This document shows positions 5,858 through 32,939 of a stretch of DNA of 35,206 nt, one piece after another (within the stretch, counting starts at the first letter, position 1; every line of letters starts with the position of its first letter). Under the pieces are notes generated by a model. The model saw only the letters and a program-made list of their open reading frames with translations, was not told the origin of the DNA and ran no database searches. The translations under genes were made by a program, and so were the position numbers. The stretch covers positions 1 through 35,206 of the forward strand of contig JBKJLC010000212.1 in assembly GCA_046597055.1 (NCBI GenBank). Direction: 5' to 3'. The DNA is from Kofleriaceae bacterium. GTDB taxonomy: Bacteria > Myxococcota_A > Polyangia > Haliangiales > Haliangiaceae.

Positions 5858-7693
5858 ATGTCGAGCCACGCCACGCCGAGCTACCCGCCGATCGATCCCG
5901 CGCGCGTCCGGTCGGTGATCGCCACCGACTGCGGATCGACGACGACCAAGGCGATCCTGATCGAGAAGAACGAGCAGGGCGAGTACCGGCTGCGCTCGCG
6001 CGGCGAGGCGCCGACCACGGTCGAGGCGCCGGTCGAGGACGTCACCCGCGGCGTCATCAACGCCGTCCGCGAGATCCAGGAGCTGCGCGGCCGTCAGTTC
6101 CTCACCGACGACGGCACCGCGATCATCCGGCCCGAGAAGGACGGGGTCGGCACCGACCTGTACCTGTCGACCTCGTCGGCCGGCGGCGGGCTGCAGATGA
6201 TGGTCGCCGGCGTCGTCAAGAAGATGACCGCCGAGAGCGCTGCCCGCGCCGCCCTGGGCGCCGGCGCGATCGTGATGGACTCGATCGCCACCAACGACAA
6301 GCGCCTGCCGCACGAGAAGATCGACCGCATCCGCCAGCTGCGGCCCGACATGATCCTCATGGCCGGCGGCACCGACGGCGGCACCGTCAAGCACGTGGTC
6401 GCGATCGCCGAGCTCCTGCGCGCGGCCCAGCCCCGGCCCCGGCTCGGCCAGGGCTACGACCTGCCGGTGATCTACGCCGGCAACCGCGAGGTCCGCGCCG
6501 AGGTCGAGCGCATCCTGGGTGGCAAGGTCGCGCTGCAGTTCGTCGACAACCTGCGGCCGACCCTCGAGGAGGAAAACCTGGGCCCGGCCCGCGACGCGAT
6601 CCACGACCTGTTCATGGAGCACGTCATGGCCCAGGCCCCCGGCTACGGGAAGCTGATGACCTGGACCGACACGCCGATCATGCCGACCCCGGGCGCGATG
6701 GGCCTCATCATCAAGGCGCTGGCCGAGCGCGACAAGGTCAACGTGGTCGGCGTCGACATCGGCGGCGCCACCACCGACGTGTTCAGCGTGTTCGACGGCA
6801 GCTTCAACCGCACGGTCTCGGCCAACCTCGGCATGAGCTACTCGGTGTCGAACGTGCTCGCCGAGGCCGGCATCGATCAGATCCAGCGCTGGGTCCCGTT
6901 CGACCTGCACGAGGCCGAGCTGCGCGACCGGATCGGCAACAAGATGATCCGGCCGACCACGATCCCGCAGACGCTCGAGGAGCTGAAGATCGAGCAGGCG
7001 ATCGCGCGCGAGGCGCTGCGGCTGTCGTTCATCCAGCACAAGCAGTTCGCGGTGAAGCTGACCGGCGGCCAGAAGGAGAGCTCGATCTCCGACGCGTTCA
7101 GCCAGGGCACCACCAACACGCTGGTCGACATGATGACGCTCGACCTGCTGGTCGGCTCGGGCGGCGTGCTCAGCCACGCCCCGCGCCGCAGCCAGTCGAT
7201 GCTCATGATGATCGACGCGTTCCAGGTCGAGGGCATCACCGAGATCGCGGTCGACTCGATCTTCATGATGCCGCACCTGGGCGTGCTGTCGACGGTGCAC
7301 CCGGCGGCGGCGACCGAGGTGTTCGAGAAGGACTGCCTGGTCCGCCTGGGCACCTGCGTCGCGCCGGTCGGCGTGGCCAAGCGCGGTCCGCCGTTGACGA
7401 TCGAGCTGCGCATGCCCGGCGGTACCACCAGGACCGAGCGGCTCGCCGCCGGCAGCCTGACCCACCTGGCGCTCGGCGCGGGCGAGACCGCCCATGCCAT
7501 CCTGACCCCGGCCCGCGGCGTCGACGTCGGCGGCGGCCCCGGCGAGAAGGTCGAGCGCACCCTGCGCGGCGGCGTGGTCGGCCTGGTCTTCGATGCCCGC
7601 GGGCGCCGACCGATGAACGTGCCGACCGCCCACGACGCGCGGGTCACCGCCAACCTGGCCTGGACCGGCGCGATGGACCTGTACCCGGCCTGA
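5858..7693 (+). CDS. glmL: GlmL/MutL (glutamate mutase L) family ASKHA-fold ATPase
   Basis: Phosphate-1 ATDCGSTTTK, family motifs STSSAGGGLQM, AARAALGAGA, PDMILMAGGTDGG, VIYAGN and IMPTPGA, phosphate-2 GVDIGGATTDVFS, RTVSANLGMSYS, adenosine motif VGSGGVLSHA. The symbol indicates family only. Confidence 0.88.
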   Translation: MSSHATPSYPPIDPARVRSVIATDCGSTTTKAILIEKNEQGEYRLRSRGEAPTTVEAPVEDVTRGVINAVREIQELRGRQFLTDDGTAIIRPEKDGVGTDLYLSTSSAGGGLQMMVAGVVKKMTAESAARAALGAGAIVMDSIATNDKRLPHEKIDRIRQLRPDMILMAGGTDGGTVKHVVAIAELLRAAQPRPRLGQGYDLPVIYAGNREVRAEVERILGGKVALQFVDNLRPTLEEENLGPARDAIHDLFMEHVMAQAPGYGKLMTWTDTPIMPTPGAMGLIIKALAERDKVNVVGVDIGGATTDVFSVFDGSFNRTVSANLGMSYSVSNVLAEAGIDQIQRWVPFDLHEAELRDRIGNKMIRPTTIPQTLEELKIEQAIAREALRLSFIQHKQFAVKLTGGQKESSISDAFSQGTTNTLVDMMTLDLLVGSGGVLSHAPRRSQSMLMMIDAFQVEGITEIAVDSIFMMPHLGVLSTVHPAAATEVFEKDCLVRLGTCVAPVGVAKRGPPLTIELRMPGGTTRTERLAAGSLTHLALGAGETAHAILTPARGVDVGGGPGEKVERTLRGGVVGLVFDARGRRPMNVPTAHDARVTANLAWTGAMDLYPA

Positions 7694-7720
7694 GCGCGCC
7701 GACGGGCTGACCCGGCGCGC
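7694..7720 (+). terminator. GC-rich hairpin directly after the glmL-like stop (possible terminator or processing stem)
   Basis: GCGCGCCG ... CGGCGCGC inverted repeat. No U-tract. Confidence 0.35.
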
Positions 7721-7809
7721 GACGACCTCGCGGCGTGCTGCCCGGGATCGATCGCGGCGTCGCCGTATCTATAGATGAAGCAGCGGGAAGGCTCGGAGGG
7801 CTGGCGCGG

Positions 7810-7837
7810 TTGACCCCAAAGGGCCCCTGCGTATGAT
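7810..7837 (+). promoter_or_regulatory. Candidate internal sigma70 promoter TTGACC-N16-TATGAT
   Basis: TTGACC 7810-7815 and TATGAT 7832-7837, both 5/6 consensus. ATG is 12 nt downstream with no SD. Perfect palindrome ATCTATAGAT at 7767-7776 upstream. Confidence 0.6.
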
Positions 7838-7849
7838 GCCCCCGCCTTC

Positions 7850-8962
7850 ATGGGAGACGCCTACACACCTGGCCTCACGGTCACCCGCAGCACGGTCGTG
7901 CGCAAGAGTCGCCGGCTGCCGCTGCCCGGCGACGTGCTCCGCAAGGTCGGTGATCGGGTCGAGTCACACGACGTCATCGCCCGCACCGATCTGCCCGGCA
8001 AGGTCCACCTGCTCAACCTGGCCACCGCGCTCGGCGCTCTGCCCGACGAGCTCGCCGGCAAGCTGCTGATCCAGCCGGGCGCCGCGATCCGCAAGGGCCA
8101 GTCGATCGCCGAGAGCAAGAGCTTCTTCGGGCTGTTCACCGCCCGCGCGCTGTCGCCGATCGACGGCACGCTCGAGTCGGTGTCGGAGGTGACCGGCCAG
8201 GCCGTCCTGCGCGAGCCGCCGGTGCCGGTCGAGGTCAAGGCCTACGTCGACGGCAAGGTCGTCGAGATCCTGGCGGGCGAGGGCGTGGTCGTCGAGACCG
8301 AGGGCGCGCTCATCCAGGGCATCTTCGGGCTGGCCGGCGAGGTGGTCGCGCCGCTGGTCATGATCGCGACCCGCCCCGATCAGCCGCTCGAAGCGTCGGA
8401 TCTCAAGCCCGAGCACAAGGGCCGGGTGGTCGTCGGCGGGGGTCGGGTCAGCCTGGCCGCGATGCGTCGCGCGATGGAGCTCGGCGTCGCCGCCGTGGTG
8501 TCGGGCGGCTTCGCGTACCAGGACGTGAAGGAGCTGCTCGGCTACGACGTCGGCGTCGCGATCACCGGCGGCGAGGCGCTGGCCACCACGCTGGTGGTGA
8601 CCGAGGGCTTCGGCGACATCGCGATGGCGACCGCCACCTTCGAGCTGCTGCGCAGCCTCGAGGGTCGGATCGCCTCGGTGTGCGGCGCGACCCAGATCCG
8701 CGCCGGCGTGATCCGGCCCGAGGTCGTCATCCCGGGAACCAGCCAGGGCAACCGCGCCCAGGCCGAGGCCGGCGGCCTCGACATCGGCGCGCCGGTCCGC
8801 TGCATCCGCGCGCCGTACTTCGGCCGGATCGGCACCGTCAGCGCGCTGCCGGTCGAGCTGGAGACCATGCCGTCCGAGACCCGGGTCCGCGTCCTCGAGG
8901 TCGACCTCGGCGGCGAGAAGATCCGGGTCCCGCGCGCCAACGTGGAGGTGATCGAGCGATGA
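7850..8962 (+). CDS. Uncharacterised soluble protein: barrel-sandwich-hybrid repeats, central alpha/beta domain, C-terminal KOW/SH3-like domain
   Basis: GDVLRKVGDRVESHDVIA and PGAAIRKGQSIAE...SPIDGTLESV resemble biotinyl-lipoyl/RnfC-N hybrid motifs. C-terminus LDIGAPVRCIRAPYFGRIGTV...RVPRANVEVI is KOW-like. Confidence 0.85.
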   Translation: MGDAYTPGLTVTRSTVVRKSRRLPLPGDVLRKVGDRVESHDVIARTDLPGKVHLLNLATALGALPDELAGKLLIQPGAAIRKGQSIAESKSFFGLFTARALSPIDGTLESVSEVTGQAVLREPPVPVEVKAYVDGKVVEILAGEGVVVETEGALIQGIFGLAGEVVAPLVMIATRPDQPLEASDLKPEHKGRVVVGGGRVSLAAMRRAMELGVAAVVSGGFAYQDVKELLGYDVGVAITGGEALATTLVVTEGFGDIAMATATFELLRSLEGRIASVCGATQIRAGVIRPEVVIPGTSQGNRAQAEAGGLDIGAPVRCIRAPYFGRIGTVSALPVELETMPSETRVRVLEVDLGGEKIRVPRANVEVIER

Positions 8963-10407
8963 GGCGGTGTGCCCACGCGTGTCTCGCCGGCTTGCCGGCC
9001 CTCGTCCTCGCGAGCGCGATCGCGTCCGCCCAGCCGCTGCCAGCGGGCGCCACGCCGGGCGGCGCCCCCGCCGGTGCCGAGCAGCCGGCCACCGACCGGC
9101 TGGCGCCTGTCGATCAGCCGGTGTCGCCGCCGCCGGTCGAGCCTGTGCCGCCGGTGCCCGCCGCGCCGCCGCGGGTCGAGGCCCTGCGGTCGCTCGACGT
9201 GCAGCCGCTGAAGAACGACGACGGCAAGCACCTGCAGCTCACCTTCGAACGGCCGGTGCAGGTCGCTCAGGACATGGTCTCGACCATCGCCTTCCGCCGC
9301 AAGCACGGCGTGGCGAACGCCCCGCCGGCGTACCCGGTCGTGGCCGAGCCGGTCGCTGGCACCCTGCGCTGGTCGCCCGACTTCCTCGCCGGCGCCGCGC
9401 CAGCCGCCGCCGAGGCCGCGCCCCTCGACGCCTCGACCCCGCTCAAGGCCGGCGACACGGTCGGTCCGTGGACGGTCGCCGCCGTGCTCGAGGCCGGTGA
9501 GACCAGCCTCAAGGACGAGGTCGCGCCCAGCACCGCGTACGAGTACGTCGTGGTCGAGGCCCGCCGCGACGGGGACGGCAAGCTGCTCGCGATCTCGCCC
9601 GGGCTCGTGATCGGCCCGCGCGTGCCCGAGGCCGCGCTGTTCCACACCGAGCGCTGGGGCTACCTCCTCATCGTCCTGCTCATCTCCGGCCTGATCGCCT
9701 TCTACATCCGGCTGGCCAAGGCGCGGCCCAAGGAGATCTTCATCCGCCGCATGCCGGGCGTCGATGCGCTCGAGGACGCGGTCGGTCGCTCGACCGAGAT
9801 GGGCCGCCCGGTCCTGTACGTGACCGGCCTGGAGGAGATCCAGGACATCATGACGATCGCGTCGCTGCTCATCCTCGGCCATGTCGCCGAGTTGACCGCG
9901 CACTACGACACCGAGATCAAGGTCGCGAACTACTTCCCGCTGACGATGGTCGTCGCCGAAGAGATCGTGCGCCAGGGCTACGCCAACGCCGGTCGTGCCG
10001 ACGCCCACCGCCCCGAGAACGTCCTGTTCATCACCGCCGAGCAGTTCGCGTTCGCGGCCGGCGTCAACGGCATCATCCTGCGTGACAAGCCGGCGACCAA
10101 CATCTACTTCGGCAAGTTCTTCGGCGAGTCGCTGCTGCTGGCCGAGACCGGCTACATGACCGGCGCGATCCAGATCGCCGGCACGGCCGAGCTGCCGCAG
10201 CTGCCGTTCTTCATCGCCGCCTGCGACTACACCCTGATCGGCGAGGAGCTGTACGCGACCTCGGCGTACCTGTCGCGCGAGCCGACGCTGCTCGCCAACC
10301 TCAAGGCGGGCGACGCCTTCAAGCTGCTCGCGATGCTGTTCATCGTGGTCGGCACCGCGCTGGCGACGGCAGGCGTCTTCCACCTGGCCCCCAAGGTGTT
10401 TCCATGA
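8959..10407 (+). CDS. Membrane protein, DUF6754-like: signal peptide, Pro-rich/FN3-like exported part, TM, soluble domain, TM
   Basis: ATGA overlap at 8959. Signal peptide, Pro-rich linker, FN3-like strand LKDEVAPSTAYEYVVV, TM YLLIVLLISGLIAFYI, then IRRMPGVDALEDAVGRSTEMGRPVLY...LPFFIAACDYTLIGEELYATSAYLS, which I recall as DUF6754-type. Confidence 0.8.
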   Translation: MRRCAHACLAGLPALVLASAIASAQPLPAGATPGGAPAGAEQPATDRLAPVDQPVSPPPVEPVPPVPAAPPRVEALRSLDVQPLKNDDGKHLQLTFERPVQVAQDMVSTIAFRRKHGVANAPPAYPVVAEPVAGTLRWSPDFLAGAAPAAAEAAPLDASTPLKAGDTVGPWTVAAVLEAGETSLKDEVAPSTAYEYVVVEARRDGDGKLLAISPGLVIGPRVPEAALFHTERWGYLLIVLLISGLIAFYIRLAKARPKEIFIRRMPGVDALEDAVGRSTEMGRPVLYVTGLEEIQDIMTIASLLILGHVAELTAHYDTEIKVANYFPLTMVVAEEIVRQGYANAGRADAHRPENVLFITAEQFAFAAGVNGIILRDKPATNIYFGKFFGESLLLAETGYMTGAIQIAGTAELPQLPFFIAACDYTLIGEELYATSAYLSREPTLLANLKAGDAFKLLAMLFIVVGTALATAGVFHLAPKVFP

Positions 10408-11315
10408 AGAAGCTGGTGCCGCTGGTCTTCGGCATCCTGTTCGGCCTGTACGCGGTCGCCGAGTTCTACATCCCGCATCACGACGTCGGCGAGCTGACCG
10501 ACGAGTTCCGCAACTGGGCTGGCATCCTCACCGCCGCCGCCTTCGTGCTGGGCGGGCTCAACATCCTGCAGGTCACCTGGCCCAAGATCCGGCGCCGCGA
10601 GCCGGACTGGGGCTACAAGGTCCTGCTGCTGTCGGCGGCCGCGGTCATGGTGCTGGTCGGCCTGCCCTGGCACAAGCTCGGCGATCGCGCCGAGCCAACC
10701 TCGGCGATCACCGCGGCGACCGACGTCGCGGCCGGCCAGGCGCGGGTCGTGGTCGAGGCGCCCGCCGACGTGGTGGTCCAGGTCGGCAGCGTGGTCGCTG
10801 CCGCGAAGGATGCCGGCGGCAAGCCGTTCACGGTCGAGGTCGCCCCCGGCTTGATCGAGATCAAGCTGTCGCGCCGCGCCGCCGGCTACGAGGCGCAGGT
10901 CGCGACCGTCACCGTGGCCGCCGGGCAGCTGGCAACCGTCGCCGGTGACCCGCCGACCCTGTGGGGCAAGGAGGGCCGGGTCTTCGTCTGGCTCTACGAC
11001 CACGTGTTCGCGCCGTGCAACTCGACCATGTTCGCGTTGCTGGCGTTCTTCGTGGCGTCGGCGGCGTTCCGCGCCTTCCGCGCCCGCAACACCGAGGCGG
11101 CGCTGCTGCTGACCGCGGCGATCGTGATGATGCTCGGTCGCGCGCCGCTGGGCCGCGCGCTGTGGGATGCGCTGCCCGACATCGCGCAGTGGCTGCTCGA
11201 CGTCCCCAGCAACGGCGGCCGGCGCGCGATCATGATGGGCGCGGCGGTCGGCGCGATCGCCACCGGCCTGCGCGTGATCGTCGGGCTCGAGCGCTCGCAC
11301 CTGGGGAGCGACTGA
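10404..11315 (+). CDS. Polytopic membrane protein with a PEGA-like loop insertion
   Basis: ATGA overlap. About 6 hydrophobic helices. Motifs STMFALLAFFVASAAFRAFRAR and GGRRAIMMGAAVGAIATGLRVIVGLER. Beta-rich insert at about 10731-10940. Confidence 0.85.
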   Translation: MKKLVPLVFGILFGLYAVAEFYIPHHDVGELTDEFRNWAGILTAAAFVLGGLNILQVTWPKIRRREPDWGYKVLLLSAAAVMVLVGLPWHKLGDRAEPTSAITAATDVAAGQARVVVEAPADVVVQVGSVVAAAKDAGGKPFTVEVAPGLIEIKLSRRAAGYEAQVATVTVAAGQLATVAGDPPTLWGKEGRVFVWLYDHVFAPCNSTMFALLAFFVASAAFRAFRARNTEAALLLTAAIVMMLGRAPLGRALWDALPDIAQWLLDVPSNGGRRAIMMGAAVGAIATGLRVIVGLERSHLGSD

Positions 11316-12214
11316 TGGCGACCAACCCGTCCACGCCGCACTGGACCGACCGGCTCCAGTCGTTCGACCGCCGCTGGATCTTCCTGGCGATGAGCCTGGC
11401 GATCGTGGTGCCGCTGTTCTTCCCGCTCGGCCTGCCGGCCAAGCCCGATCAGATGACCAAGGCCGCCTACAACGCGGTCGAGGCGCTGCCCCCAGGCGCG
11501 CGGGTGTTCGTGTCGCTCGACATGGACCCGGCGTCGACCCCCGAGCTCGAGCCGTTCTTCAAGGCGGTGATGCTCCAGCTCAAGCGCAAGAACGCGAAGC
11601 TGGTGTTCGCGACCACCTGGTACTCGGCGCCGCCGCTGGTCGAGCGCTACATGCGCGAGTCGGTCGAGGGCACGCTGGCCCCGGCCGGGACCGAGGGCTA
11701 CAGCGGGCTGCCCGACCGGCCGTACGTGAAGAACGTCGACTACGTCAACCTCGGCTTCCGCGACGGCAAGGGCGCCATCATCCAGCTGTTCGGCTCCGAC
11801 CTGCGCAAGGCGTTCGACGGCCGCGCCAACGACGGCACCGCGCTCGACCGCATCCCGATGCTGAGCGGCATCAAGCAGCTCAAGGACTTCGATCTGATCG
11901 TGCTCGTCAACGCCGGCTTCCCCGGCGCCAAGGAGTACGTCCAGTTCGTCGGTACCCGCTACAAGCTCAAGATGATCACGGCGTGCACCGCGGTGTCGAC
12001 CACCGACCTGGCGCCGTACTTCCAGACCGGCCAGCTGGTCGGCCTGGTCGGCGGCATGGCCGGCGCCGCCGGCTACGAGCACCTGGTCGGCAAGAAGGGC
12101 GCGGGCACCTCGGGGGCTGACGTGCTCAACGTCGGCAACCTGGTCGTGATCCTCGCGATCGTGCTCGGCAACATCATCTACTTCGTCAGCCCCAAGAAGC
12201 GGGGACGGAGGTAG
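11315..12214 (+). CDS. Membrane protein: TM, about 230-aa alpha/beta domain, TM
   Basis: Start at ATG 11315 (TGATG overlap, GGGGAG SD). DRRWIFLAMSLAIVVPLFFP...DYVNLGF...LAPYFQTGQLVGLVGGMAGAAGYEHLV...VVILAIVLGNIIYFV-SPKKRGRR. Confidence 0.85.
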   Translation: MATNPSTPHWTDRLQSFDRRWIFLAMSLAIVVPLFFPLGLPAKPDQMTKAAYNAVEALPPGARVFVSLDMDPASTPELEPFFKAVMLQLKRKNAKLVFATTWYSAPPLVERYMRESVEGTLAPAGTEGYSGLPDRPYVKNVDYVNLGFRDGKGAIIQLFGSDLRKAFDGRANDGTALDRIPMLSGIKQLKDFDLIVLVNAGFPGAKEYVQFVGTRYKLKMITACTAVSTTDLAPYFQTGQLVGLVGGMAGAAGYEHLVGKKGAGTSGADVLNVGNLVVILAIVLGNIIYFVSPKKRGRR

Positions 12215-12216
12215 TC

Positions 12217-13215
12217 ATGCCCGCGCTCGCGCTCATCGACGTCGTCGGCGTGTGGTTGGGGATCTTCCTCACCTTCTGCATCCTGTCGTTCCTCTACGAC
12301 GACAACCCCTTTTACAAGCTGGCCGAGCACCTCTTCATCGGGATCTCGGTCGGCTACCTGATGGTGCTGCAGTACAACGACAACCTTCACCCCAAGCTGT
12401 TCGTCGCGCTGGGCGAGAAGGAGGGGCTCGATCTGTTCCTGCGCCTGGTCGGCGCGGTCCTGGTCGTCATGCTGTTCGTGAAGGCGATCTCGCGGAAGTG
12501 GGCCTGGGTCGGCCGCTTCCCGCTGGCGTTCGTGGTGTCGTTCTACGCCGGCCTCCAGATCAACGCGGTCGCGCAGGCCGAGCTGGGCGCGCAGATCGCG
12601 TTCGCGGCCGGCACCCTCGACGAGACCAAGGTCGACCTGAACACCGCGCCGCCCGACAAGCTCACCGCGGTGCCGGGCTCGTCGCCGCTGATCGCCGAGA
12701 AGCTGCTGGTCGCCCGCGCCGAGCGGCCGTTCATCAGCCTCGACGACGCCGCCACCCGGCCGACCCTGACCCCGGCCGAGCAGGCCGACCTGGCCGCCGC
12801 GCGGGGTCCGCTGGTCGGGCTCGACGCCAACGCCGACGTCCGGCCGGGCCAGCGCAACTGGTTCGGCGTGGTCTCGAACGTCCTGCTGCTGCTCGGGCTC
12901 CTGACCTCGCTGGTCTACTTCTACTTCTCGGTCCCGCACACCGGCGCGGTCGGGCGCATCTCGCGCATCGGCGTCTGGGTGCTGATGGTCGGGTTCGGCG
13001 CCAGTTTCGGCCTCACCGTGCAGGGGCGCCTGGCCCTGGCGATCGGCCGCGCGTACGAGGTGCTCGGCCGCACGTTCAGCCCGGCCGACGCGGCCCAGAT
13101 CCGCGCCCCCTACGTGTCGGTGATCTCGATCGCGATCATCATCCTCGGCATCGCCGGCTGGGAGCTGCGTCGCCGCAAGGACGCGGGCCACGCTGGCACC
13201 GCCGGGAAGACCTGA
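12217..13215 (+). CDS. Polytopic membrane protein with an inserted ComEA-like helix-hairpin-helix domain
   Basis: GGAGG SD. About 7 TM segments. Motifs LSFLYDDNPFYKLAEHLFIGISVGY and LMVGFGASFGLTVQGRL. Insert VDLNTAPPDKLTAVPGSSPLIAEKLLVARAERPFISLDDA. Confidence 0.85.
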   Translation: MPALALIDVVGVWLGIFLTFCILSFLYDDNPFYKLAEHLFIGISVGYLMVLQYNDNLHPKLFVALGEKEGLDLFLRLVGAVLVVMLFVKAISRKWAWVGRFPLAFVVSFYAGLQINAVAQAELGAQIAFAAGTLDETKVDLNTAPPDKLTAVPGSSPLIAEKLLVARAERPFISLDDAATRPTLTPAEQADLAAARGPLVGLDANADVRPGQRNWFGVVSNVLLLLGLLTSLVYFYFSVPHTGAVGRISRIGVWVLMVGFGASFGLTVQGRLALAIGRAYEVLGRTFSPADAAQIRAPYVSVISIAIIILGIAGWELRRRKDAGHAGTAGKT

Positions 13216-13233
13216 TAGGTTCTCGGCGCACGG

Positions 13234-14631
13234 ATGTCGTACGAGTGGCAGATCGGTTGGCGCTACCTGTACGCGGGCAAGCGCGATCGCGGCATGCTCA
13301 CCGGCTGCCTGGTCTCGCTCGGGGTCTCGGCGGCCGGGCTCGGCCTGCTCGCCGTGTCCGACGGCGGCTCGCCGGTCGGCGTGGTGACCTTCCTGCTCGG
13401 GCTGATCTCGGCGGCGGTGTTCGGGCTCTTGTCGGTGCTGTCGGTGTCGGTCGCGGTCGCCGTGCTCGGGGTGGTGCTCGGCGTCGCCGCGCTCACCGTG
13501 GTGCTGTCGGTGACCAGCGGCTTCCAGGACCAGTTCCGCGAGAAGGTGCTGGGGGTCAACGCCCACGTCATCATCATGAAGAGCTCGACCGACTTCGCGG
13601 AGTACCGCGAGGTCATGGACACCGCGCGCACGATCGATCGTGACGTGATCGCGGTGCAGCCGTTCATCTTCGTCGAGATGCTGGCGACCACCGGCAAGGG
13701 CCGCATCGCCGGGGTCGCGATCAAGGGCGTCGATCCCGACCGGGTCCGCGGCGTGCTCGATCTCGACAAGCACATGATCGAAGGCTCGGTCGCGGCGCTG
13801 TCCGAGCCGCCGGCCGAGGGCCAGTCGCCGCCGATCATCATGGGCAAGGAGCTGGCCCGCAAGCTGCGCGCGAAGATGGGCGACGAGATCACGGTCGTGG
13901 TCCCGATGTCGAACGTCGACCTCGAGACCTGGCGGACCACCGCGGCGGCGCCGCGCACGCGGCGGTTCAAGGTCGCCGGGGTGTTCTACAGCGGCTTCGA
14001 CGAGTACGGCCGCCGGCTGATGTACACCAGCCTGCGCGAGACCCAGGCCCTGCTCGAGCGCGGCGACAAGGTCATGGGCGTCGAGCTCAAGGTCCGCGAC
14101 GTGGCGCGGGCCCAGGCGATCGCCAACAAGCTGTCGGTCCGCCTGGGTGAGCCGCCGTTCCAGGTCCAGGACTGGTACGAGCTCAACCACAACCTGTTCA
14201 AGGCGCTGACCATGCAGAAGGCGGCCTTGTTGATCGTGCTGTTCCTGATCATCGCGGTCGCCACGGTCAACCTGATCTCGGCGATGGTGATGATGGTGAC
14301 CGAGCGGATCCGCGAGATCGCGATCCTGAAGTCGATGGGCTCGCCGTCGCTCGAGATCGGCTTCGTGTTCACCATCGTCGGCACCGCGATCGGCGCGGTC
14401 GGCACGCTGGTCGGCATCGGCCTCGGCGTCTCGACCTGCGTGGTCGTGCGCAGCTACGGCTACCGGCTCGACCCCAAGGTCTACCTGATCGACCAGCTGC
14501 CGATCAGCGTGCGCCCGTCGGAGATCGCGCTGGTCGCCGGCATGACCATGCTGATCTGCCTGGTCGCGACGCTGATCCCGACCTTCAAGGCCGCCGCGCT
14601 GCGCCCGGTCGACGGCCTGCGCCACGACTGA
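13234..14631 (+). CDS. lolC: Lipoprotein-releasing ABC transporter permease, LolC/E family
   Basis: YEWQIGWRYL, LGVAALTVVLSVTSGFQDQFREKVLGVNAHV, DWYELNHNLFKAL, ERIREIAILKSMG, VYLIDQLP, AAALRPVDGLRHD. LolC versus LolE is not resolvable. Confidence 0.92.
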   Translation: MSYEWQIGWRYLYAGKRDRGMLTGCLVSLGVSAAGLGLLAVSDGGSPVGVVTFLLGLISAAVFGLLSVLSVSVAVAVLGVVLGVAALTVVLSVTSGFQDQFREKVLGVNAHVIIMKSSTDFAEYREVMDTARTIDRDVIAVQPFIFVEMLATTGKGRIAGVAIKGVDPDRVRGVLDLDKHMIEGSVAALSEPPAEGQSPPIIMGKELARKLRAKMGDEITVVVPMSNVDLETWRTTAAAPRTRRFKVAGVFYSGFDEYGRRLMYTSLRETQALLERGDKVMGVELKVRDVARAQAIANKLSVRLGEPPFQVQDWYELNHNLFKALTMQKAALLIVLFLIIAVATVNLISAMVMMVTERIREIAILKSMGSPSLEIGFVFTIVGTAIGAVGTLVGIGLGVSTCVVVRSYGYRLDPKVYLIDQLPISVRPSEIALVAGMTMLICLVATLIPTFKAAALRPVDGLRHD

Positions 14632-26704: not shown

Positions 26705-27340
26705 ATGCGGACTCTCGCGCTCGCGCTGGCGTTGGCCCTGCCCGGCTGCGCCCTACTCAGCGCCAAGGCACCCAACCCACAACGACGGGTCGACCAGGCA
26801 CCGGATTGCCACTCGGGCAAGACCGGCGTCGCGGTCGACGGAATCATGACCGGTACCTTGGGGCTCATGGCGATCGGGATCAGCGGCGAGTCCGCCGGGG
26901 CCGGAGTCGTGACCGGCTTGATCGCGGCCGCGTACCTCGGCTCGGCGCTCTCCGGCAACAGCTCTGCCGACAAGTGCCGCGCAGCGGTGGCGGAGCACGA
27001 TGCGCACGCGGCCCGGCGCGGGCAGCTCGGCGGGCTCCCGATCGCGCCACCGTCCGGCTCACCGGACGAGGACGGCGACGATCCCGACGAGCGGAACCGG
27101 CGGCGCCCCCCGCTGGCGGTACGGCCGGCGACGCCGACCCCGGCGCGACCGACCGCCCCGGCCCCGGCCCGGCCCACCGCCCCGGCGCCCGGGCGGCCGA
27201 CGGCGGCTGCGCCGACCCCGCCCGCGGCTCCCGCCGCGACCGCGACCGGCGATGACGAGACCGACGATGCCGCCCCGGCACCGGCTGACGATGCCGGCGG
27301 CGATCTGTGGAACGACTTCTGGCAGGAGGTGCCTCGATGA
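26705..27340 (+). CDS. Putative lipoprotein with a Cys-flanked Gly-rich hydrophobic hairpin and Pro-rich tail
   Basis: MRTLALALALALPGC lipobox. Cys...two Gly-rich hydrophobic segments...Cys, then Pro/Ala repeats and acidic-aromatic end DLWNDFWQEVPR. Confidence 0.78.
   Translation: MRTLALALALALPGCALLSAKAPNPQRRVDQAPDCHSGKTGVAVDGIMTGTLGLMAIGISGESAGAGVVTGLIAAAYLGSALSGNSSADKCRAAVAEHDAHAARRGQLGGLPIAPPSGSPDEDGDDPDERNRRRPPLAVRPATPTPARPTAPAPARPTAPAPGRPTAAAPTPPAAPAATATGDDETDDAAPAPADDAGGDLWNDFWQEVPR
27143..27214 (+). repeat. Three degenerate 24-nt tandem repeats (ARPTAPAP / ARPTAPAP / GRPTAAAP)
   Basis: Read directly in frame within the lipoprotein linker. Confidence 0.8.
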
Positions 27341-28938
27341 GTCTCCGTGCGATGAGCGGTGCGGCCGTGGCCGCGCTGGTGATGGCGGCCACCGCGGCGC
27401 GCGCCGACGTCGTGGCCCCCGGCGTGGTCGTCAAGGTCGATGCCGGCGAGATCTACGTCAACCTCGGCAGCAACAAGGGGGTCGCCGATGGCGCCGCGCT
27501 GCGACTCAAGCGTCCGATCGTGCTGCGTCATCCGGTGACCCGGGCCCCGGTGCGCGACTGGCTGCCGCTCGGCTCGGCGACCATCACCAGCGCCGGCGGC
27601 ACGCTGGCGATGGCGGTGCTCGACGACGTCCTGCATGCCCAGGTCAGGGTCGGCGATCTGGTCGAGGTCTATGTCGAGCGTGAGGAGTCGCGGCCGGCAC
27701 CTGCGGCGCCCGCGCCGGCCCCGCCGCCCGACGCGCAGGGCCCGCTGCCCGCGATCGACGCCGACACCGCGTCGGTCCTGCAGGTCTGGGCCGCGCAGTC
27801 CGGCCAGTCGCTCGACCGTCGCGTCGCGGCCTGGGAAGGCTGGCTCGCGACCCACGCCGACTCGGCGCTCGCGGCCGGGGTCCGCGACGACCTCGAGGTG
27901 CTGCGCGCGCAGCGCGAGGCGGCCACGCCCCGGCGACCCACCGCCGGCGGCGCCACCGCGGCGCTCGGGCACATCGCCCCGACCCGCGCCCAGATCGGTG
28001 ACGACATCCCGCTGGTGTTCGTGATGGAGGATCCCGGCCGGGTGGTGACGGCGTCCCTGCACTACCGCGTCGCCGGTGCGCGGACCTACCGCCGCCTGCT
28101 GCTCGGGCGCGAGCACGACCTCTACCTGCGCGGGACCATCCCCGCCGCGGTGGTCGCGGCGCCCGGCGTCGAGTACTTCGTCGAGGCGACCCTGGCCACG
28201 GGCGCGAGCGGCGCCGCCGCGGGCACCCCCGACCAGCCGCTGAAGGTGACGGTCGCGCCGCCGCCGTTGATCGATCGGTTCGTCGGCACCCGCAACCGCA
28301 CGCGGATGTCGATCATGGCGAGCTACCTCGACTTCGGAAACCTCGACGACCGCCCGGGCGACCGCACCGATCGCTTCTATCTCGGCGAGGTCGACGTGCT
28401 GTTTCGCATCGGCGACGTGCTGTGGGGCGTGCGCGCGGGCTACGGCTCGTACGGCGGCCGCGGTGGCCTCGCCAACCAGGTGTGGACCGAACCAGCGCCG
28501 GCGCCGGAGGTCGGCTTCCAGTATGGCTACGCCGAGGCCGAGGTCCGGGCGCCGAGCGCGAAGGGCCCACCCCTGGGCGCCGCCGCGCGCCTGTACGCCG
28601 GCGTCGGCAACGAGGGCTTCGGCCTCGGCATCGCCGGGCGGGTCCGGATCGGCGACGCCGATCTCACCAACCTGTCGGCCAGCGTCTCGACGATCGATCA
28701 GGTCGGCTTCTTCTCGGATCTGCGGCTCGAGGCCTGGCCGGATCGCCGGCTCCCGGTCGGCATCTCGGTCGGAGTCACCGACCAGCCGGGCACGGGCGAC
28801 CTCGGCGTCCGCCTCGCGGCCGACCTCGGCTGGCGCGCGCGGTCGTGGATCCAACCCACCGTGCGGCTGTCCTGGCAGGGCCGGACCGCCGTGCACTCGG
28901 GCCTGGGCGGCGGCCTCGGCTTGGTCTTCGACTGGTGA
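27337..28938 (+). CDS. Putative outer-membrane protein type A: FlgT-C-like beta domain, helical pair, Ig-like domain, beta-barrel
   Basis: ATGA overlap, GGAGG SD, signal peptide. Motifs VVKVDAGEIYVNLGSNKGVADG...HPVT...VRVGDLV and LHYRVAG...GTIPAAVVAAPGVEYFVEA. Ends GLGLVFDW. Confidence 0.8.
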   Translation: MSLRAMSGAAVAALVMAATAARADVVAPGVVVKVDAGEIYVNLGSNKGVADGAALRLKRPIVLRHPVTRAPVRDWLPLGSATITSAGGTLAMAVLDDVLHAQVRVGDLVEVYVEREESRPAPAAPAPAPPPDAQGPLPAIDADTASVLQVWAAQSGQSLDRRVAAWEGWLATHADSALAAGVRDDLEVLRAQREAATPRRPTAGGATAALGHIAPTRAQIGDDIPLVFVMEDPGRVVTASLHYRVAGARTYRRLLLGREHDLYLRGTIPAAVVAAPGVEYFVEATLATGASGAAAGTPDQPLKVTVAPPPLIDRFVGTRNRTRMSIMASYLDFGNLDDRPGDRTDRFYLGEVDVLFRIGDVLWGVRAGYGSYGGRGGLANQVWTEPAPAPEVGFQYGYAEAEVRAPSAKGPPLGAAARLYAGVGNEGFGLGIAGRVRIGDADLTNLSASVSTIDQVGFFSDLRLEAWPDRRLPVGISVGVTDQPGTGDLGVRLAADLGWRARSWIQPTVRLSWQGRTAVHSGLGGGLGLVFDW

Positions 28939-28946
28939 GGCACCTC

Positions 28947-30083
28947 ATGCGCATCCCATCTCACATCGCAACCGGCCGGCGGCTCGTGCGCCGCGCCGCG
29001 CTGACGGCGGCGACCGCGCTCGCGCTCGCCGCGCTGACCCCCGCCGCGGCCAGCGCCGGCGGCGTCCGCCACCTGCCACCCGCCGAGGCCACCGCTGGCG
29101 AGGTGCTCGCGCTCACCGTCGAGGTCGCCCGCGCCAGCGAGCGCACGCTCTACCTGCGCTATCGCCCGGTCGGGGCGGTGTCGTGGTCGACCCTCGAGTT
29201 CGCGCGGACCGATGACGACGGCTGGGTCGCCAAGGTGCCGGCGGCCCAGGTCGCGCCGCCCGGGATCGAGTACTTCATCGCGTCGAGCGAGAAGGATGGC
29301 CCCGAGGCGACCGAGTTCGCCTCGCCGGCCGCGCCCCACCGGGTCGGCGTGCTCGCCACCAGCGTCGAGCTGCGCCGCGACCGCGATCTGGCGCGCGTCA
29401 AGCAGCGCCGCTCGCGCGTGCACGTCGCCGCCGAGTACGTCAGCTACGGCGACCGGCAGCGACCGACCGCCGGCGGCGAGGTGTCGATCGCCGATCATTA
29501 CTACCGGGTCGACGCCGCCTTCAGCTATCGCCTGCTGACCTATCCGCTCGAGGAGATCCGCTTCGGCTACACCCGCCTCGAGGGCACCGTGCCCAATTCG
29601 CCGCGCGAGCTGGCCGAGGTCTGCGCGAGCGACGCCGAGGACGAGGGCTGCCGCCTCGCCGCCGGCTTCAAGGTCGGCGGCTGGTTCGAGCTCGGCCTGG
29701 CGCCGATCGAAGGCGTGCGCTTCGACGCGCGCGGCATGTTCACCGCCAACCAAAAGGGCTTCGCGGTCGGCGCCCGCGGCGAGCTGCGCACCGGGCTCCG
29801 CGACGGCAACCACGTCGCGATCGGCGCCGAGTACATGGCCGACGTCGGCACCACCGGCTTCTTCCGCCTCGGCTGGGACACGGTGCCCATGGTGGCGATG
29901 GCCGCCACCGTCGAGGTCACCGACATGCCGGCCAGCGTGCGCGCGACCGGCGTGCGCCTGCTCTACGACGCGTTCGTTCCGCTCTCCAACGGCCTGCGCC
30001 TCGGCGCACGCATCGGATACGCCGCCCGCGATCAGCGGATCGGCGGCCCCACCGCTGGCCTCGGCGCCAGCTTCGACTTCTGA
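28947..30083 (+). CDS. Putative outer-membrane protein type B: Ig-like domain plus beta-barrel
   Basis: ATG 28947 with GAGG SD. Arg-rich signal peptide. HLPP...LRYRPVG...VPAAQVAPPGIEYFI...FASPAAPH. Ends GLGASFDF. Confidence 0.8.
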   Translation: MRIPSHIATGRRLVRRAALTAATALALAALTPAAASAGGVRHLPPAEATAGEVLALTVEVARASERTLYLRYRPVGAVSWSTLEFARTDDDGWVAKVPAAQVAPPGIEYFIASSEKDGPEATEFASPAAPHRVGVLATSVELRRDRDLARVKQRRSRVHVAAEYVSYGDRQRPTAGGEVSIADHYYRVDAAFSYRLLTYPLEEIRFGYTRLEGTVPNSPRELAEVCASDAEDEGCRLAAGFKVGGWFELGLAPIEGVRFDARGMFTANQKGFAVGARGELRTGLRDGNHVAIGAEYMADVGTTGFFRLGWDTVPMVAMAATVEVTDMPASVRATGVRLLYDAFVPLSNGLRLGARIGYAARDQRIGGPTAGLGASFDF

Positions 30084-30090
30084 GGACCCC

Positions 30091-31830
30091 ATGCAGAAGC
30101 TCGCGATCACGATGGTCTTTCTCGCGGCCGCCGCCGTCCCGGCCGCGGCCGAGCCGGTGGTGCTCTCGGTCGAGCGTGGCCTGGTCTACGTCGACCTCGG
30201 CAGCCGTGACGGGGTCGGTGACGGCACCGAGCTCGAGCTGGTGCGCGAGGTCGTCGCGCGCGACCCGGTCAGCGGCCAGGTCCTGCGCGACAAGTTCGCG
30301 CTCGGCACGCTGGTCGTCACCAAGGCCGGCGACCGGGTCTGCGCGGCGCGGCCGTCGGAGGCGATGGCCGGCCGGGTCCGCGCCGGTGACGAGATCCGGC
30401 TCTCGTCCGAGAAGCGGACGTTCATCGACCCCTGGGCCCAGCGGGTGCTGGCGTCGCAGCAGCCGGCCGACCGGCCGGGCCCGGCGGTCGCGATCGGACC
30501 CGGCGCCGACCGGGCCGGGGCCACCCGCGCGGTCGAGGAAGCGGTGGCGGCACAAGCCGTGTGGGCCGCCACCCTCGGCAAGGATCCTGCCGCGCGGGCC
30601 GGTGCCTGGCGCAGCTTCCTCGCGGCGCGCCCGACCACGCCCTACGCCGCGGCGATCCGCGCCGAGCTGGCGAGCCTCGAGGCCCAGGCGCTCGCGCTCG
30701 AGCGGGCCGAGGCGGCCGCGCGCACGCCGACCGTGGTGGTCGACCGCCGCCGGGCGCTGGCGGATGCGCTGGCCGCGCTGGTCGGCGAGGCGAGCGGCGC
30801 GCTGTGGGCGTCGGCGCCGACCCGGGTCGGGCCCGGCCAGCCGGTCACCCTGGCCTTCACGCAACGTGGGCGCCTCGAGGGCGCGGCCTGGCTGTACGTG
30901 CGACCGGGCGGCACCGAGGCCTTCCAGCGGATCGCGCTCGTCCCCGAGGGCGACGGCTATCTGCGCGCGACGATCCCGGCCGCCATGGTGACCGGCGACA
31001 GGGTCGACTGGTTCGTCGAGGTCGGCGAGAGCTCGCCGGGGATCGGGAGCCGGGCCGAGCCGCGCACGATCGTGGTCGACCGCGAGGTCGGCGAGGCGCC
31101 GCCGGCCACGGGCCGCAGCCAGATCGCGCTGCGCATCGACTACGTCGACTTCGACGGTGGCTTCGAGAAGGGCTTCGACCAGTACCGCCAGTTCGAGGCC
31201 GAGTTCGCCTACCGGTTCCTGCAGCCGGTCCACACCGTGCGGCTCGGCTTCGGCTCGCTGTCGGGCAAGGGCGGGCCCAAGGACGTCATCGATCTCGACA
31301 AGGAGATGTGCATCGATGCCGGCGGTGCCCATCGCTGCCGGTCGGTGGAGTTCACCTACGTGTTCACCGAGATCGAGCTGCGGCCGCGCAAGATGATCGC
31401 GGTGATGCTGCGCCCGCAGGCCGGGCTGCTCACCACCAACCGCGTGCGCGAGCGGGTCGAGGCCTCGGACTGCCGCGACACCAGCGACATCGAGAACTGC
31501 GAGTTCTTCGCCGGCTTCGGCTTCCGCGGCCGGGTCCGCTTCGGCGAGGAGGACTCGACCAACCTCGAGCTCAGCGCCGCCTTCACCGACCGGGTCGGGA
31601 CCCTGTTCGAGGCCGCCTACAACTGGGCGCCGCGCTACGAGTTTCCGATCCACCTCGCGGTCCAGGTCACCGATCTGCCGGTGCCCGAGGACCTCGGCGT
31701 CCGCCTCATCACCGAGGTCGGCTGGCGTGAGTGGTCCCGCGTCTATCCCTCGCTGCGCCTGTCCTACCAGGCGCGCGACATCGATCACCTCGGCGTGTCC
31801 GGGGGCGTCGGCCTCAACTTCGACTGGTGA
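30091..31830 (+). CDS. Putative outer-membrane protein type A' (paralog of 27337-28938)
   Basis: Signal peptide. VLSVERGLVYVDLGSRDGVGDG...DPVSG...VRAGDEI, AWRSFLAARPTTPYA, YLRATIPAAMV. Ends GVGLNFDW. Confidence 0.82.
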   Translation: MQKLAITMVFLAAAAVPAAAEPVVLSVERGLVYVDLGSRDGVGDGTELELVREVVARDPVSGQVLRDKFALGTLVVTKAGDRVCAARPSEAMAGRVRAGDEIRLSSEKRTFIDPWAQRVLASQQPADRPGPAVAIGPGADRAGATRAVEEAVAAQAVWAATLGKDPAARAGAWRSFLAARPTTPYAAAIRAELASLEAQALALERAEAAARTPTVVVDRRRALADALAALVGEASGALWASAPTRVGPGQPVTLAFTQRGRLEGAAWLYVRPGGTEAFQRIALVPEGDGYLRATIPAAMVTGDRVDWFVEVGESSPGIGSRAEPRTIVVDREVGEAPPATGRSQIALRIDYVDFDGGFEKGFDQYRQFEAEFAYRFLQPVHTVRLGFGSLSGKGGPKDVIDLDKEMCIDAGGAHRCRSVEFTYVFTEIELRPRKMIAVMLRPQAGLLTTNRVRERVEASDCRDTSDIENCEFFAGFGFRGRVRFGEEDSTNLELSAAFTDRVGTLFEAAYNWAPRYEFPIHLAVQVTDLPVPEDLGVRLITEVGWREWSRVYPSLRLSYQARDIDHLGVSGGVGLNFDW

Positions 31831-31838
31831 GGACCCTC

Positions 31839-32939
31839 ATGCGTCTCCTCGCGGCCATCATCGTCACGCTCCTCGCCACGCCGGTCGCGGCGCAGGCGCC
31901 CTCGCCACTCGCGGCCAACGCCGTCGAGCCGGCGCCCACCCCGGCCGCCCCGGCCACCGCCGCGGCCGCGCGCGCCACCGTGCTCCACGTGCCGGTGGCC
32001 GAGGCCATCCCGCACCGGCCGATCGAGATCATCGCGACCATCGACGGCGCCTGGGCCGAGCCGATGCTGGTGGTGCGCTGGCGCGCCCGCGGCACCGGCG
32101 CCTGGCGCGACACCCCGTTCGAGCAGTCATCGGCCGGCGGCTGGTACGCGATCCTGCCGCCCGCGGCCAGCGTGCCACCCGGCGCCGAGTACTACATCGT
32201 CGGCACCGGCGGTCCGGGTCGCGAGGTCCCGCACTTCGCGTCGGCGGCCGCGCCGCAGGCCATCCGGATCGAGCCGGGGCTGGTCGATCGTCTCGAGCTC
32301 CTCGACGACGGTCGCACCGGCGGCCGCACCGAGTCGGTGTCGTTCGACGTCGATGGCCACGACTTCGGCAACCGCTACGGCGAGCAGGACCGGTTCGCCC
32401 GCGCCGAGCTGCGCTGGAGTCATCGGGTATCGCGGAAGTTGCACGCGGTCAGCTTCGGGTTCGTGTCGATCTGGGGCAAGACTCCCGACACGGTCGGCCC
32501 GTTCGCCGGCACCGCCACCACGCTCGCGCGCTATGGCAATGCTGCCGTCAGCCTGCGGCCCCATCCGTCGGTCTTCGTCGACGCCCGGCTCGCGCTCGGC
32601 GTCTCTCACGAGGGCTTCCTCAAGGGTGTCGGTGGCACCGTGACCTTCGGCAAGCCGTGGCGGGCCAACCTGTCGATGGGCGCCGATCTGCTCGACGACC
32701 TGGGCCCGACCGCCTTTGTCCGCCTGCAGTGGGACACCGCGGTGCCCCTGATCATGGGTGCGTCGGTCGTCCGCACCGACCTGCCGGGCGCGGTGGTCGA
32801 AGCCGACGGCCTCTACGTGAAGTACGACGTGGCCTGGGCGCTACGGCCGGCGTTCACGGCGCGCGCGGCGTTCTCGTACGGCGCGCGCGATGGGGCCGGG
32901 CGCTTCGGCGGTGGCCTCGGCGTCCAGACGGACTTCTGA
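31839..32939 (+). CDS. Putative outer-membrane protein type B' (paralog of 28947-30083)
   Basis: ATG 31839 with GAGGA SD, signal peptide. HVPV...VRWRARG...VPPGAEYYI...FASAAAPQ. Ends GLGVQTDF. Confidence 0.8.
   Translation: MRLLAAIIVTLLATPVAAQAPSPLAANAVEPAPTPAAPATAAAARATVLHVPVAEAIPHRPIEIIATIDGAWAEPMLVVRWRARGTGAWRDTPFEQSSAGGWYAILPPAASVPPGAEYYIVGTGGPGREVPHFASAAAPQAIRIEPGLVDRLELLDDGRTGGRTESVSFDVDGHDFGNRYGEQDRFARAELRWSHRVSRKLHAVSFGFVSIWGKTPDTVGPFAGTATTLARYGNAAVSLRPHPSVFVDARLALGVSHEGFLKGVGGTVTFGKPWRANLSMGADLLDDLGPTAFVRLQWDTAVPLIMGASVVRTDLPGAVVEADGLYVKYDVAWALRPAFTARAAFSYGARDGAGRFGGGLGVQTDF

Follow-up and report, generated by a model that had tools for sequence, protein, structure and literature searches.

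A myxobacterial gene cluster for a lipoprotein and two pairs of paralogous, predicted outer-membrane barrel proteins, and its possible role as an envelope platform

What do a lipoprotein and four related large proteins, encoded side by side in a myxobacterium, build together? The question is raised by positions 26,705 to 32,939 of contig JBKJLC010000212.1 (Kofleriaceae bacterium, assembly GCA_046597055.1), which we analysed within a window, the whole stretch of DNA under study, of 35,206 nucleotides. The original prediction, made from the letters of this stretch, read the genes as a lipoprotein (here L) followed by four paralogues in the order A, B, A', B', and proposed an A-B heteromeric outer-membrane module that had been duplicated as a unit. 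Open reading frame (ORF) calls reproduced the five-gene order (Table 1). The pairing, the distribution, the gene order, the predicted folds and the A-B contact described below were obtained by computation, and we propose that the four proteins and the lipoprotein probably form a cell-envelope scaffold.

The paralogy of the four large proteins proved to be far beyond chance. By BLASTP, A matches A' with E 6e-56 and B matches B' with E 1e-29, these being the closest pairings, while the cross pairs range from 1e-7 to 4e-12; all six pairings beat every one of 200 shuffles (Z 9-78), and a comparison of the A-family with the B-family profile gave probability 100 and E 2e-58, spanning the immunoglobulin (Ig)-like domain and the barrel. 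The predicted motifs were recovered as well: TD[QML]P and [YW]x[AG]R in all four proteins, FAS.AAP and F.RL.WDT in B and B', TD.P...DLGVRL...GWR in A and A', and the aromatic ends FDW, FDF, FDW and TDF of A, B, A' and B', respectively. Two claims stood in part. The shared Ig pattern is present but schematic: some 17 residues separate its halves, and the PG.E[YW] half is missing from A'; the signal peptides were judged by eye and by conservation, with no predictor, and their cleavage and the location of the proteins are putative.

Within the libraries searched, the four barrel proteins match no known family, as the original prediction had supposed. None of the five window proteins has a Pfam match, nor do 60 relatives above the cut-off, and NCBIfam gave no match at cut-off for any of the five. 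PDB sequences compared with the A and B profiles yielded nothing significant (best E 0.25, the Ig domain of PPAD), a plasmid search gave no family match and a viral fold search gave generic matches only. In the ESM Atlas only unnamed Myxococcota clusters were returned, at 0.98, with no usable match for the N-terminal part. The homologues that bear a name are annotated as 'hypothetical protein' and come from Kofleriaceae, Polyangiaceae and other genomes of Myxococcales type, and literature searches at the level of titles and listings, without subscription papers or supplements such as myxobacterial proteome tables, found no paper on the barrel family.

AlphaFold2 models of A and B were built from alignments of 103 and 108 homologues, respectively, and were read from lists of secondary structure and contacts, the coordinates not being viewed. 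Both are confident, with predicted local distance difference test (pLDDT) scores of 91.3 for A and 92.7 for B, and the strand count that had been suggested as a check gave twelve C-terminal strands in each, aligning over their full length to closed barrels. The barrel strands show an alternating hydrophobic pattern, and the terminal residue is W in 57/57 A and 51/51 A'-like proteins, F or Y in 58/58 B and F in 45 of the 46 B' proteins. A terminal aromatic residue is typical of substrates of the β-barrel assembly machinery (BAM). These models and patterns support A and B as predicted BAM-type outer-membrane barrels, the class to which A' and B' are provisionally assigned by alignment.

Structural matches of the B barrel include KdgM (Z 16.1, root-mean-square deviation (rmsd) 3.3, 167 residues aligned), BrkA (16.1), VhGalP (15.9), AIDA-I (15.0), NalP (14.8), NanC (14.6), FapF (14.3) and LpxR (13.9), and the A barrel gave close values. 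Since the Z values are tied across barrel families, these matches indicate a strand number of 12 and not a family. With KdgM/NanC, the autotransporters, COG4313, FapF and LpxR, the proteins have a common barrel fold (Z 13-16, rmsd 3-4 Å) but only 6-14% identity and no family match; unlike them, A and B are paired paralogues with putatively periplasmic domains, lacking a lumenal helix in the model and the LpxR catalytic loop. A TonB-dependent receptor, which is a 22-stranded barrel with a plug domain, was ruled out by the 12 strands and the absence of a plug match, and the PopA superfamily by 12 strands versus 16 with a helical plug.

That KdgM, VhGalP and NanC stand among the top matches raises the possibility of a solute-selective channel of the KdgM/NanC/COG4313 type, in which every barrel would be a pore, whose heteromer would give two or four specificities and whose Ig-like domains would capture periplasmic glycans. 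The lumen is polar and charged, rich in Gly, with 8-13 R/K and 8-11 D/E among 55-58 inward positions, and the Ig matches include several N-domains of alpha-glucan enzymes (Z 9-10). However, the Z values tie with those of autotransporter barrels, no scanned member has a Pfam match, and the KdgM/NanC family profile matched none of the 4 window proteins, nor any of 60 relatives above cut-off. KdgM/NanC porins pass acidic oligosaccharides through an open, basic-lined pore; the predicted lumen combines many Arg with almost the same number of acidic residues. The gene neighbours share no transporter or hydrolase genes, and a channel leaves the β-roll of A (see below) and the pairing unexplained. We consider a channel the chief alternative, possible though on the doubtful side; it may coexist with a platform.

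Two further barrel families enter by the same matches, so that an LpxR-like outer-membrane enzyme or a FapF-like export pore was also weighed. One ESM Atlas cluster of the barrel family carries the automatic name DUF2219, presumably the old name of the LpxR family, and at the outer mouth of its barrel A conserves the group D332/D345/R516/H520. Against this, HHalign with 5 LpxR-family sequences gave a probability of 0.6 and E 0.095, and the loop-3 helix with the catalytic H122, described in the available part of bioRxiv 10.1101/309096, has no counterpart in A, where loop 3 is a short turn. For FapF, no cargo gene is shared among the neighbours. Either identity is very unlikely, and LpxR proper (PF09982) was ruled out: besides the HHalign result and the lack of a long loop 3, D-F replaces its N-D calcium site on strand 1.

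The complex of A(24-533) and B(37-378) was then predicted from paired alignments of 128 rows, in three runs and with three controls. The interface score ipSAE was 0.78 in all three runs, while the best of the three controls reached 0.36; among 157 solved complexes 116 attain the ipSAE mark, among 215 mismatched pairs 2, figures that apply only roughly to our own alignments. The runs agree on at least 93% of the contacts, with a partner pLDDT of at least 85. In the model, outward residues of A strands 2-5 (354, 356, 365, 367, 369, 397, 399, 419, 421, 423) face B strands 7-10 (290, 306, 308, 310, 320, 322, 324, 336, 338), A 211-217 touches the Ig region of B (39-47, 122-136), and the Ig-to-barrel linker of each protein contacts the other chain. 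The B-specific FAS.AAP and F.RL.WDT motifs sit inside this interface, whereas the A-specific DLGVRL motif sits on the free face of A. Together with the A-then-B adjacent pairs found across the phylum, this controlled prediction supports the proposed heteromer, in which A would bind B side by side in the membrane.

Both proteins place an Ig-like domain before the barrel. In structural searches that of A matches the Ig domain of PPAD (VIA Z 11.9), and A and B overall give Z 11-12. The domain recurs in Corallococcus, ahead of the plug of a TonB-dependent receptor (L064 7890-11012 +), which indicates a role as a periplasmic spacer; it is also found in TPR proteins with C-terminal membrane-type segments, among them proteins of the genome of the window (L130 856-2508 +; L131 958-2472 +), and is repeated up to 20 times in proteins of 3000-4000 amino acids (aa) (P0241-P0246). 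Classical autotransporters, which would display the Ig and β-roll domains outside the cell, have the same layout, a C-terminal barrel of 12 strands behind N-terminal domains; BrkA, AIDA-I and NalP are among the matches, and a helix precedes the barrel in B. Yet this helix spans only 12 residues in B (5 in A), the top autotransporter alignments begin at the barrel, and the linkers are modelled in contact with the partner chain instead of filling the lumen. No Autotransporter Pfam match was found, and the Ig homologue of the TonB receptor is periplasmic. We regard outward display as highly improbable, and a type Va autotransporter was ruled out for lack of the long lumen helix.

How regularly the genes occur together was examined in 67 loci from one genome scan, with 57 close A relatives counted (an extra fragment from the genome of L057 was omitted). 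A-B-A'-B' is complete and in order in 48/57 Kofleriaceae-type loci, 9/57 are cut by contig ends and 0 are rearranged. Of the 51 loci of four-gene type where there is room for L, 49 have it directly before A (46 identified by BLAST, 3 recognised by eye), and the L profile finds nothing in the single-pair loci; we can thus add that the lipoprotein accompanies only the four-gene form. In phylum searches, which scored 5-7 candidates per genome so that absences mean 'not found', a barrel-only profile matches 70/401 genomes (the B profile at E 1e-25 gives 68), and 56 of these 70 carry an adjacent same-strand pair, A preceding B in the fetched two-gene loci. The proposed survey of A/B co-occurrence thus bears out the pairing. 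Two pairs, each on its own contig, are present in one genome of the same order. Within the family that includes Corallococcus, 3/31 genomes hold the full pair, and two Corallococcus genomes, with all candidates scored, gave no barrel match. At L108 8147-8851 (-) (G080:C41), the B gene looks split into Ig-part and barrel-part frames.

Some relatives stand alone. The single-gene relatives L135-L144 (for example L135 5251-7182 -, L138 5077-6999 -, L140 4698-6260 +, L141 4674-6407 -) carry one or two Ig domains and a barrel whose last residue is F, and the fetched stretches contain no gene for a partner barrel; their N-terminal β-roll-like domain is a profile match in L140-L142 and was seen by eye in the others. 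They are candidates for a homo-oligomeric form. The family thus comes in three grades: single gene, pair, and duplicated pair with lipoprotein. In a quick tree of 106 Ig+barrel sequences (of 258 rows), supported by the Shimodaira-Hasegawa-like approximate likelihood ratio test (SH-aLRT) only, the A versus B split has support 100, A+A' 89 and B+B' 88, and each copy forms its own clade. This fits the predicted duplication of the pair as a unit in one event, the support where the copies join being moderate (SH-aLRT 88-89).

The extra N-terminal domains noted in A correspond, by the AlphaFold2 model and fold searches, to a FlgT_C/TsaP-type β-roll and three helices. The roll matches FlgT 8z5n (VIA Z 12.6, rmsd 2.7, 93 aligned) and, by Foldseek, FlgT 3w1e (E 2e-4), and A is predicted to have the six-stranded β-roll with finger of the FlgT_C fold; H65-P66 and D74 of the finger are among the best conserved residues of A-type proteins. 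None of the window proteins reaches the PF16538 cut-off, while one relative scores 16.3 bits and one relative is annotated PF16538. HHalign also matches the roll (E 1.9e-5) with the C-domain of a LysM+FlgT_C protein of the same genome, which from its domains we take to be TsaP. A TsaP-like gene of this LysM+FlgT_C kind lies at L118 1366-2664 (-) (G000:C18), flanked by genes for a TPR protein and a DprA-like protein (both neighbours judged by eye).

In known cases the FlgT_C/TsaP-type β-roll forms rings or docks on envelope machines. TsaP and FlgT, with which the domain of A shares fold, finger and a weak but real sequence similarity, are both soluble periplasmic ring proteins on the secretin or the LP ring; that of A, in contrast, is fused to its own barrel, lacks LysM and does not track FlgH. 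For Vibrio, the part of bioRxiv 10.64898/2025.12.02.691832 that was available describes FlgT_C as scaffolding the T-ring. The proteins might then be accessories of a flagellar or gliding machinery, as a FlgT-like ring or a GltAB equivalent, and the genome does encode FlgH (G000:C73:41483-42028). But FlgH is found in 19/70 barrel-positive genomes versus 158/401 overall (kin not being independent), and in family f23 the barrel occurs in 20/29 genomes and FlgH in 0/29; a flagellar H-ring component was ruled out on this co-occurrence.

On the gliding side, the gltK-B-A-C operon of Myxococcus xanthus likewise unites a lipoprotein and two mutually dependent heteromeric barrels, as the accessible text of PMC9946355 and PMC3169522 has it, and is the closest analogy in organisation, a likeness that we regard as analogous and not homologous. 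By the same partial sources GltA and GltB have 256 and 275 aa and unstructured N-termini, GltA being OmpA-like (PMC3169522), whereas A and B carry Ig and β-roll domains; the barrel family is moreover patchy, with the Corallococcus absences and the rare pair in that family given above. Identity with GltA/GltB was rejected on size and fold, from their description and not by sequence comparison. We consider a flagellar or gliding accessory quite unlikely.

Taking these results into consideration, our best explanation is a structural envelope platform, argued in part by analogy and held with about equal belief and doubt, in which heteromeric barrels display variable outer loops and carry a tethered β-roll. 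We infer the following arrangement. A and B would be exported via Sec and inserted by BAM as 12-stranded outer-membrane barrels, packing laterally in the membrane, with their periplasmic Ig-like necks also touching. A flexible Pro-rich tether would carry the β-roll of A in the periplasm, where it may organise the assembly or bind a periplasmic partner. The variable outer loops, partly disulphide-capable, would face the environment; Cys pairs occur in outer loops of B and A', and the loops of A' are longer than those of A. In Kofleriaceae, where the pair is duplicated, the four proteins probably form one A-B-A'-B' assembly to which the lipoprotein would bind.

Because the modelled A-B contact joins unlike faces, head to tail, it could repeat into a chain or a large ring. 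In the four-gene loci we compared the conservation of outward positions of strand sets with strands 1, 6 and 12, a test that is insensitive and post hoc, with faces assigned by hand from alternation, 12-15 positions per face and p values uncorrected for multiple tests. Strands 2-4 (p 8e-5) and 8-10 (p 3e-4) of B are more conserved, as are strands 8-10 of A' (p 0.005) and of B' (p 0.018), faces that fit an A-B-A'-B' row; strands 2-4 of A' (p 0.13) and 8-10 of A (p 0.09) are not significant. This is a lead only, from which a second contact, B-A', may be proposed and which does not support ring closure. By a crude estimate from the contact list of the model, donor and acceptor faces would lie about 5 strands apart on the 12-stranded barrel, at ~150-165 degrees, which makes a gently curved chain, or a ring of at least ~12 alternating barrels, likelier than a compact tetramer.

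That the A-B-A'-B' contact repeats on and the barrels polymerise as a chain or large ring has partial support and is a tentative, rather unlikely extension. If true, the β-rolls would form a periplasmic crown, a ring could enclose lipid or belt another machine, and the paralogous barrels in alternation would constitute an outer-membrane superstructure of a new type. TsaP belts PilQ, its finger making ring contacts, according to the consulted portion of bioRxiv 10.1101/2020.05.29.123786. PopA of Bdellovibrio offers a precedent for barrels joined side by side into higher oligomers, but is 16-stranded, plugged and homo-oligomeric, unlike A and B, in the sections of PMC12228718 at hand.

Several observations weigh against a paired platform. 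Strands 2-4 of A, the modelled contact, are not significantly conserved (p 0.32), nor are those of B' (p 0.31), and in single-pair genomes no face is. A and B being homologous, the ipSAE score of the pair is no proof of A-B specificity as against homodimers. Inter-chain mutual information placed 0/40 top pairs in the modelled interface at an effective depth of 83, its signal being dominated by subfamily structure. No adjacent pair is found in 14/70 barrel-positive genomes, some of them fragmented and some with single-gene relatives. The gene neighbours are uninformative, differing between lineages with no gene shared across lineages beside the pair, and the charged lumen resembles that of a channel.

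The folds of the components are already known; their combination and the alternating pairing of paralogues appear to be new. To our knowledge, heteromeric assemblies of paralogous outer-membrane barrels are rare. In the literature consulted, seen in part, GltAB is the myxobacterial example. The A/B family adds a new domain combination, present in about 1/6 of the sampled phylum genomes and in many uncultured myxobacteria, and its three grades offer a natural series in which to follow a barrel oligomer turning into a heteromer. A residue-level prediction of the A-B interface is available, and members from Myxococcaceae and Polyangiaceae may offer a workable host.

Table 1. Genes of the cluster and predicted domains of A and B (window positions; residues numbered in each protein).
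Feature	Location	Strand	Remarks
Lipoprotein L (211 aa)	26705..27340	+	ORF call
L, N-terminal part			Putative lipobox xGC (Cys15); Cys35/Cys91 pair flanking two Gly-rich hydrophobic segments
L, C-terminal part			Pro-rich linker, then W-x-x-F-W motif
Protein A (533 aa)	27337..28938	+	AlphaFold2 model, fold searches
A β-roll	residues 24-113, 27406..27675	+	FlgT_C/TsaP-C-type; conserved finger hairpin H65-P66, D74
A linker	between β-roll and three helices		Pro linker
A three helices	residues 142-196, 27760..27924	+	Conserved R162, W166, D/E185
A Ig-like domain	residues 208-307, 27958..28257	+	Putatively periplasmic
A barrel	residues 322-533, 28300..28935	+	12 strands, ends in W; strands 2-5 predicted B contact
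Protein B (378 aa)	28947..30083	+	AlphaFold2 model
B Ig-like domain	residues 40-136		After the putative signal peptide
B helix	residues 139-150		Arg-rich
B barrel	residues 156-378		12 strands, ends in F; strands 7-10 predicted A contact
Protein A' (579 aa)	30091..31830	+	A paralogue, by alignment
Protein B' (366 aa)	31839..32939	+	B paralogue, by alignment

The lipobox of L was assigned by eye and by conservation of xGC in the lipoprotein alignment, and W..FW is found near the C-terminus in 45/47 homologues. Its terminal E-V may be set by the ribosome-binding site of A (27305-27340), by which W-x-x-F-W is not so constrained. A second lipoprotein of the same genome (G000:C285, minus strand, near offset 51905 of the reverse complement) has the same Cys-flanked Gly-rich hairpin without the W-x-x-F-W tail. 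Tat export of B was ruled out, its Arg pair not being conserved, and a pattern search found a Tat-type motif in 0/185 downstream-gene starts.

An ATGA overlap joins L and A, and the remaining intergenic gaps measure 7-8 nt. A, B and A' each end in a stop codon that overlaps the GAGG ribosome-binding site of the downstream gene (28930-28950, 30078-30094, 31822-31842), and the A-B and A'-B' junctions are almost identical in sequence. A promoter scan found 0 sites and a terminator scan stayed at chance level. The neighbours clpA, a 2OG-Fe(II) oxygenase gene and argG reflect local synteny only. Elsewhere in the window, at 5858-14631 (+), lies a run of genes for a GlmL-like protein, a biotin-lipoyl-like protein and a DUF6754 membrane protein, which also holds three membrane proteins without a family and a LolC/E-type permease.

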